Source: Leucoraja erinacea (Eukaryota). Taken from it: 64,000 nt of DNA. The notes under the pieces are model-generated. The model had not been told where the DNA came from. It was given only the letters and a program-made list of their open reading frames with translations, and did no database searches. Shown here one piece after another: positions 9,932-10,929 of this stretch. Within the stretch, counting starts at the first letter, position 1, and each line of letters opens with the position of its first letter. The stretch spans positions 81,282,001 to 81,346,000 of the forward strand of contig NC_073382.1 of NCBI RefSeq assembly GCF_028641065.1, in the 5' to 3' direction. The position numbers and the translations under genes were made by a program.

Positions 9932-10333
9932 ATGCTGTGTGTTGTGTGTTTGTGTGTTTGTTTGGTGGAGTCGGAGGGGAGAAGCGCCGGCAACAAGAGC
10001 GAGTGAACGCGCGGACAGACGGACGAAAGCAACGATCATAGAGCTGGCATAGGTGGACCCTTCTTCAGACTGACAGTCAAGGGAGATATAGGCATATCTT
10101 CCATTTATTTGTCCTTAGTACCGTCTATATCTCTTGCTCCTCTTTCCCCTGACTCAGTCTGAAGAAAGGTCTCGACCCGAGATGTCACCTACAAAGATCT
10201 TTGGTCACCTATTCTGTTCTATGATCGTTGCTTTTGCCCGTCTGTCCGCCAGTTCGCTCACTCTTGGTGCTGGCGCTTCTCCACTCAGACTCCGCCAAAC
10301 AAACACACATACACACACACATACACACAGCAT
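9932..10333. repeat. Inverted duplication of the BCL7 5' leader (arms ~9932-10058 and ~10204-10333)
   Basis: The reverse complement of the right arm aligns with the left arm with scattered mismatches (GGAGAAGCGCC..CAAGAG..GCGGACAGACGG..AAAGCAACGATCATAGA). Confidence 0.85.
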
Positions 10334-10423
10334 GTCCGGCAGATCAGTGCGGGCCGAGACCAGGAGCAGGGCGAAGGATGACATCAAACGGGTCATGGCA
10401 GCTATCGAAAAAGTACGGAAATG
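10332..10423 (+). CDS. BCL7 family (BCL7A-like) coding exon 1, orphan fragment
   Basis: Translates [31 protein letters not shown], the conserved BCL7 N-terminus. It is 92 nt and ends in a phase-2 donor TG|GTAAGG as in BCL7 genes. No exon 2 (EKKWVTVGDTSLRI) was found in the window. Confidence 0.8.
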
Positions 10424-10929
10424 GTAAGGAGGAGTTGGTTTTTTTTAAACCCCGAAGGAAATAGATGTTTAACAAAAAAAGGGGAGGCCGGCGATCGCTC
10501 CGTTTCCGTGTCGGAGAGAGGGGGGTGGGGGGTGATGGTTTTAGTGGAGACGGGTCTCGATCCGAAATGTCACCTATTCCTTTTGTCCAGAAATGTCGCC
10601 TGACCCGCTGCATTTTGTGTATATCCTTTAATCTCTCAGCCTGATATAGCAGAATCGCCCTGAATTAGCTTGACGCCATGATGGAAGCCGGTTACGCAAA
10701 TGGCGCTACGATTACCCATCATCTACTACGGCTTTTTAGCGGAGTGGACCATCTTGCTCGCTATAGGATCTTTGGATGGGACGTGTTGGTCCGTGTGGAC
10801 AAGTTGAGCCGAAGGGCCTCTTTCCGTGGTGTGTGACCACCCTATCCTTGCTCTCATGACCATGTAATGAAGGCAAGCTTCCAACTCTTCATTCTGAAGG
10901 AAGAGCTCTGACGGATAGTGGAGTTAATG

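Follow-up and report, generated by a model that had tools for sequence, protein, structure and literature searches.

The window analysed here, a stretch of 64,000 nucleotides from the little skate Leucoraja erinacea, harbors a one-ended copy of a widely spread family of P-superfamily transposable elements that carries exon 1 of BCL7A, and this exon was likely acquired at the broken end generated by excision of a P element within the leader of the parent gene, a reading to which we assign a probability of about 0.8.

The captured exon and its parent gene

The captured BCL7A segment occupies positions 10231..10545 of the plus strand and, as seen in its alignment with the parent locus (L041), consists of about 100 nt of leader, the coding part of exon 1 and about 120 nt of intron 1. 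The coding part (10332..10423, plus strand) runs from the ATG at 10332 to a phase-2 end, which gives 92 coding nucleotides, that is, 30 codons plus 2 nt, and it differs from the parent by two synonymous changes and by no amino-acid change. It is followed by the intact 5' splice donor of BCL7A intron 1 (10424..10429, plus strand, with the GT at 10424-10425), and the junction between exon 1 and exon 2 of the parent lies at this same point in sequencing run X17. The encoded peptide matches the Pfam domain BCL_N (E 6e-15) and is identical in 31 of 31 residues to the BCL7A chains in the PDB, which bears out the intact BCL7 N-terminus with a GT donor reported in the preliminary description of this DNA.

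Exon 1 of the parent BCL7A lies at C25:12700538, and exons 2-6 follow 6-18 kb behind it. With shark BCL7A minus its first 31 residues as the query, exons 2-6 were matched on C25 only and a single BCL7B-like exon was found on C28, in keeping with the earlier remark that no further BCL7 exon follows nearby. A functional BCL7 gene in the window is rejected, because exons 2-6 are not in cis but only on C25, and a processed retrocopy, already dismissed in the preliminary description, is rejected because the start of intron 1 is retained and exon 2 is absent. The perfect peptide and donor could also be those of a true BCL7 exon 1 with a very long intron, and a misassembly could have placed them in the window, but both explanations are next to impossible. 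A complete BCL7A resides on C25, which disposes of the possibility that this is the only BCL7A exon 1, splicing to an exon beyond the window, and there is no homology on the promoter side past -95. The segment, moreover, exists as many diverged copies, which were also found as contigs in DNA runs of two other organism labels (457 contigs compared for X1 and 103 for X8), so that it is not an assembly artefact.

Parent and copies share only about 0.3 kb, from about -95 to +195/+204 of the ATG. A search of the genome with the exon-1 peptide gave 150 scored matches among 287 candidates, and a hand count, from which 10 same-element pairs and two genes were removed, reduced these to about 138 distinct non-gene places; a 29-nt exon pattern, which counts both arms of an element, gave 232 matches at two mismatches or fewer, and its reversed control gave none. 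The exon is therefore an orphan, as it had been called, in its local context, but genome-wide, with its parent on C25 and about 138 or more copies, it is a dispersed repeat. The median divergence from the parent is 6.9% (66 copies). Segment shares of 0.25-0.33 were obtained in sequencing runs of six organism labels, contigs having been compared for X1 and X8, and no RNA run holding the segment was listed in the sequencing-run search. One copy of the element (L149) lies at C25:12521271, about 180 kb from the parent gene, and could be an early local hop.

An inverted duplicate of the leader lies upstream of the exon. Positions 9932-10055 are 84% alike to 10206-10333, which confirms the diverged inverted copy of about 125 bp described earlier, and the region 9930-10335 is predicted to fold as a single hairpin of about 400 nt (z -18.7, with 0 of 100 shuffles equally stable), which would make the inverted region longer than 125 bp. 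The inverted arm (9922..10029, minus strand) contains the BCL7A leader to the ATG, with an internal deletion, and a few bases of codons 25-28. Some inverted BCL7A piece is held by 45 of 67 loci, and the inverted exon, retained to +82 in other copies, ends near that position where it is kept. The fold-back central segment (10047..10213, without assigned strand) consists of a common genomic repeat present as mirror copies. Directly abutting the first captured BCL7A base is a P-end remnant of 17-18 nt (10214..10230, plus strand), assigned by eye to the P right end, and its mirror is read in the sequence at 10030..10046 on the minus strand. A P-type excision scar of 12 nt at 10192-10203, flanked by two identical 8-mers (10184..10211 in all, without assigned strand), is inherited within a subgroup and is also present in L131, L158, L036 and L153. 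The four short motifs singled out in the preliminary description can thus be named, those at 10030 and 10218 being the mirror pair of the P-end remnant, that at 10192 the scar and that at 10761 the right terminal repeat.

The carrier element and its family

On the evidence of its sequence, the carrier of the BCL7A exon is a non-autonomous element of the P superfamily. Its boundaries, which the preliminary description had left to be defined, are terminal inverted repeats of about 35 nt, and inverted matches of 34-42 nt are found in six of six full-length copies. Full-length copies measure 1.0-1.8 kb and include L048 (1177 bp), L061, L024, L037 and L162. The tally of ends covered 67 distinct sense-arm loci, parent and window copy included and two loci without an intron arm excluded, and within flanks of about 1.5 kb it gave a right end in 41, a left end in 19 and both ends in 13. 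Target duplications of 8 bp, with two mismatches or fewer, flank 10 of the 13 two-ended copies, a count in which the window copy, having no left end, does not take part; the remaining three have no duplication at the called ends, two of which appear shifted by one base. A Helitron as the carrier is rejected, since terminal inverted repeats and target duplications are both present.

The end pattern has 772 exact matches in the genome and none in its control. Most of 30 sampled loci with this pattern proved to be a gene-less MITE of about 400 bp with 8-bp duplications, and four carry BCL7A; the empty MITE and the BCL7A element have 170 and 61 terminal bases in common, at 76% and 85%. A Pfam search of the genome for P transposase gave nine matches. 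The P element at C956:134044-144562 (L191, L091) has 10,519 bp, an exact 8-bp duplication and THAP pieces in two exons, and its 773-aa frame contains P-type HTH, RNase H and GTP-binding domains and matches the Drosophila P transposase with an E of 1e-42; in this copy, the second THAP exon is frameshifted and a LINE has inserted. The ends of the C956 element are 81% alike to those of the BCL7A element over 89 nt and 75% over 79 nt, and it is these ends, common to the BCL7A element and an element with a THAP/P-type transposase, that place the carrier in the P superfamily. Four more 773-aa frames were observed on the small contigs C1087, C1188, C1296 and C1305. The DNA-level capture by a Pack-type transposon that the preliminary description had suspected is accordingly supported by the separate parent on C25, the terminal repeats, the 8-bp duplications and the matching transposase element.

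The window copy (9673..10774, plus strand) is truncated on its left side and is 85% colinear with L048 from base 74 to the end. Its right terminal inverted repeat (10741..10774, plus strand) is 94% alike to the left end of L048 and is the counterpart of the transposase element's 5' (THAP-side) end, and the right end of the window copy matches the end of the 10.5-kb P element at 80% over 79 nt. The left terminal repeat of this copy is absent elsewhere in the window and from the preceding 10 kb (L190). The window copy is likely a truncated, immobile member of the family, and it is probably inert. The missing left end may have been replaced by another interspersed repeat, at about 9167-9676, which directly adjoins the truncation and terminates on its right side in a 47-bp hairpin.

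By the tests used in the survey of Tan et al. 2021 (PMC8277862), the BCL7A family qualifies as an animal Pack-TIR. The full-length copies hold a segment of a single parent, on C25, between the ends of one element, and the parent has no element within 100 bp, the nearest family ends being located at -671 to -633 and at 4.1 kb. Both ends are found in the family, and the window copy itself is missing its first ~73 bp.

Further events have reshaped the family. Among the loci retrieved, 29 end-to-end palindromes were matched, of which 17 lie between 8-mers that agree with one mismatch or none; these scars, mostly of 26-38 nt, would fit a staggered cut by which pieces of the ends stay behind at empty sites. 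The subfamily of the L024 type (about 20 long matches) also contains two pieces of a second locus, at C9:16.69 Mb. Its likely parent is L186 (C9:16689300-16690500), in which the pieces lie about 0.8 kb apart beside a GC-rich region resembling a gene start; no P ends were found within 4 kb of this second donor locus. The copies L006, L017, L029, L031, L032, L107 and L110 have a common right flank past the terminal repeat, which suggests a subgroup that lies inside a larger element.

The route of capture

In the window copy, in six full-length copies and in L162 (8 of 66 copies, by eye), the first BCL7A base is immediately preceded by 17-18 nt in which the outermost part of the terminal repeat can be recognized. 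L007 and L056 show this junction with a P-end remnant as well, and copies with an intact left arm have it a second time in mirror orientation. At the level of the family, the remnant differs from the terminal repeat by a mismatch. As the captured 0.3 kb starts right behind this remnant, capture at a P excision site is indicated. The P transposase makes its cuts 17 nt in from the ends of its element, and P insertion favours the vicinity of promoters (PMC7776569). Near the promoter of the skate parent gene (L041), a 38-nt excision scar is found about 650 bp (-671 to -633) before the ATG, and a family member of 2.7 kb with an 8-bp duplication lies 4.1 kb upstream of BCL7A exon 1 (L081 668-3345). 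No scar is present at -95 in today's parent allele, so that the proposed insertion and excision left no trace there.

The model proposed here starts from the gene-less P-MITE of about 400 bp and the 10.5-kb element with a THAP/P transposase, which can be seen to share their ends and to make 8-bp duplications. A member of the family would have inserted about 95 bp before the BCL7A ATG and been cut out again, so that 17-18 nt of its end stayed attached to the gene, and the staggered cut made by the P transposase would account for a remnant of that kind. During repair, the remnant-bearing end and about 0.3 kb of BCL7A sequence would then have been joined or copied into a P-MITE, at an internal position. 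The mirrored junction suggests that a fold-back duplication later reversed the junction, the leader and most of the exon; the inversion would be later than the capture because the inverted part includes the junction. The composite has, as its dispersed copies show, transposed many times and decayed, with deletions in the arms, more insertions and, in a subfamily, a second captured locus. Copies of the family, as distinct from that of the window, can also be traced in RNA, one of them with its donor joined to a downstream acceptor, and their presence in RNA would be mostly noise without a selected function.

The same P-type Pack element could also have acquired its exon by template switching or gap filling within the MITE, independently of transposition (FoSTeST-like), with the end-like bases at the junction coming from a separate nested insertion. 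Template switching is the model preferred for multicopy animal Pack-TIRs (PMC8277862), internal P ends are common in an element that has several nested scars, and the pieces of the second locus (C9:16.69 Mb) were joined without an obvious end remnant. A nested insertion, however, should be recognizable by two half-ends and by one 8-mer repeated on either side, whereas what is found, in both arms, is a single half-end between unrelated DNA and the first BCL7A base, so that this route is possible but rather unlikely.

A route through RNA would involve a Penelope-like or other intron-keeping retroelement with inverted ends, the long repeats of which would be the repeat pieces that flank the arms. 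Each arm terminates in pieces of a common repeat, which we take to be like the minimal hammerhead ribozyme of Penelope-like elements, and inverted 5' structures are typical of these elements. Rfam, however, gave no hammerhead match in 9600-10850, and the copies are bounded by P ends and flanked by 8-bp duplications; on these two grounds a Penelope-like element or retrozyme is rejected. The host DNA taken up from the second donor locus already included this common repeat. The RNA route is thus very improbable, and capture at a P-excision broken end is retained as the preferred reading.

Fate of the copies and significance

The window copy is inserted in sense orientation in intron 1 of a sialidase-3-like gene, the closest named protein of which is from Rhinoraja (87%). 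The native first exon of this gene lies at about 8181..8234 (plus strand) with a donor at 8235, and its translation resembles, by eye, the N-terminal extension of the Mobula isoform P0124; an upstream ATG in this exon is in frame in Mobula and apparently out of frame here, where its reading frame would end just before the exon-2 ATG. Exon 2 (13249..13457, plus strand) has its acceptor AG at 13247-13248 and an ATG at 13257, and this acceptor, 2.8 kb from the captured donor, is the next one of the annotated type behind it. The last exon (15942..16919, plus strand) matches Pfam BNR_2 (8e-20) and sialidase-2 in the PDB (6e-45). An in-frame BCL7A-sialidase fusion is rejected by phase, as splicing from 10423 to 13249 would give a 36-codon frame that overlaps the sialidase ATG. 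The Pfam scan of the window covered 150 of 189 open frames; at 43702-44448 (plus strand) there is an intronless open frame of the Ras/Rho family (Pfam Ras 3e-40).

It could be argued that some copies, possibly including that of the window, have been exapted, either as a portable first exon that provides a short BCL7A peptide or an upstream frame damping the sialidase, or as a hairpin tuning BCL7A. The position of the window exon, unchanged in amino acids, in sense and with an intact donor ahead of the sialidase acceptor, would fit such a role. Exon 1 of BCL7A, in addition, encodes the arginine anchor R4/R7/R11, which binds the nucleosome acidic patch (PMC11983133), and the three arginines are all intact in the window copy. 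Only 4 of 66 copies, however, are without an amino-acid change, and the window copy had been picked for its intactness. The decay of the exon in the family, moreover, looks near neutral. In 30 copies chosen by their intron sequence, 55 synonymous, 97 missense and 6 nonsense changes stand against expected values of 44.6, 108.3 and 5.1, nonsense changes thus occurring at the expected rate; the ATG is kept in 23 of these copies and the GT in 24, and 11 have ATG, open frame and GT together. The N/S ratio is 0.74 in the 30 copies and 0.61 in all 66, which include copies picked by protein similarity. One synonymous difference is common to 60 of 63 copies and, being counted once per copy, lowers the ratio, and for this reason the value of 0.74 is read as neutral decay. 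The copies are likely passengers.

Evidence from RNA touches the family as a whole. About 6% of run X23 was covered, and among the 139 of its poly(A) reads that were compared, 7 have the left-arm junction at 10414 and 9 have element-side sequence at 10218; these element-specific junctions, which would suit an exapted exon, place copies of the family in the RNA of that organism. The double-stranded RNA suggested in the preliminary description would be compatible with the predicted hairpin and with these junctions. Over the exon, the first mates of X23 read pairs are about 80 on the plus and 8 on the minus strand, a bias whose meaning depends on the library type. Run X17, flagged as probably DNA, nonetheless holds the spliced junction of the parent exons 1 and 2, and one of its contigs, from another organism, joins the exon-1 end to a sequence that maps once in the skate genome. 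This sequence lies behind a pyrimidine tract and an AG at C2:64532841 (L160 1501), 8.6 kb downstream of a copy on the same strand, and the chance of a random site falling within 10 kb behind a copy is estimated to be near 0.0006 (for ~250 copies). The copy in question (C2:64523389-64524444; L162 890-1945) is full-length and has lost its inverted arm but keeps its ATG and its donor, at C2:64524226. It has four amino-acid changes, R7 being among the changed residues, and the splice leads to a stop after codon 30. Of the 156 open frames surrounding it, 142 were scanned with Pfam, and the domains found were all of retroelement type. As the splice is represented by one contig of another organism, it indicates that the carried donor can be used, not that its use matters. 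No read joining the window copy to anything, the sialidase splice included, was seen in the runs examined, and a wide read comparison was dominated by other repeats, with nothing specific to the window copy. Among the best 120 of 1127 BCL_N proteins, no product of a ray or skate element was apparent, and none of 12 short unnamed BCL_N proteins examined is element-derived. Exaptation is, on balance, doubtful.

The survey of Tan et al. 2021, on 100 genomes, reported only four multicopy Pack-TIR cases, 87% of its cases being hAT or Tc/mariner, and none in elephant shark; BCL7 is absent from 12 of its supplement files, and a P-type case may stand in its other supplement tables (PMC8277862). As described in that survey, Pack-hAT-N8_XT, with 291 bp of the CAPSL 5' UTR, resembles the skate family in holding a host 5' fragment of about 0.3 kb in a non-autonomous terminal-repeat element, with the parent on another chromosome and distinct target duplications, but it has 3 copies, whereas the skate family has well over 100 and belongs to the P superfamily. 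The skate family further differs from the animal Pack-TIRs presented there by its coding exon with ATG and donor, by the inverted duplicate that it contains and by the position of its breakpoint at the remnant of a transposon end (PMC8277862). To judge from sequence features, the skate system resembles Drosophila P and the zebrafish P-like THAP9 element (PMC7776569; PDB 6P5A) in its transposase with THAP, RNase H and GTP-binding domains, its ends of about 31-36 nt, its 8-bp duplication, its internally deleted derivatives and, apparently, the pieces of its ends that remain where it was excised. For Drosophila P, PMC8277862 cites capture, through end bypass and gap filling, once the element had been artificially activated; natural high-copy P derivatives with host exons, of which the skate family is one, are not described in the passages of PMC7776569 considered here.

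Other carriers offer partial parallels. HelibatN3 of bats likewise has a first-exon piece with start codon and donor in many copies and splices to downstream acceptors, cryptic ones included, but it is a Helitron without terminal repeats, and its NUBPL promoter was shown to drive transcripts (PMC4778049), whereas the skate element took only ~95 nt before the ATG. Turmoil-1 of C. elegans also carries a coding exon with a splice site in both orientations in one DNA transposon, but it is a Harbinger element with 9 copies and its fragments lie within 760-bp terminal repeats (PMC2572040), while the mirror of the skate element lies inward of its short ends. In Pack-CACTA of Arabidopsis, as is likely in the skate family, capture is tied to transposition and aberrant excision and immobile one-ended copies are left over; the model for Pack-CACTA has a pair of adjacent elements fuse around the DNA between them (PMC6379663), whereas the skate element has one half-end at the 5' breakpoint only and is otherwise a mosaic. 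Literature searches found no report of BCL7A capture by a transposon in skates or of P elements in the little skate, nothing relevant on P elements or THAP9 in cartilaginous fish, and, by title and abstract start, nothing relevant on first-exon capture in sharks or rays.

A broader proposal, improbable at present, is that P elements of skates would gather gene starts by landing in CpG-island promoters, being excised and having the remnant joined to a sister element, and that the copies would act as portable first exons that splice locally to give an arginine-anchor peptide of about 30 residues, or as a source of hairpin RNA against BCL7A. Gene capture by terminal-repeat transposons in animals has been described as rare and almost always single-copy, and the skate family contrasts with this in its P-superfamily carrier, its more than 100 copies and a breakpoint that likely records the cut of the transposase itself. 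It also brings together a built-in predicted hairpin against the leader of its parent and a single sign that the carried donor is used. The link between the promoter targeting of P elements and the capture of first exons thereby becomes testable in a vertebrate.
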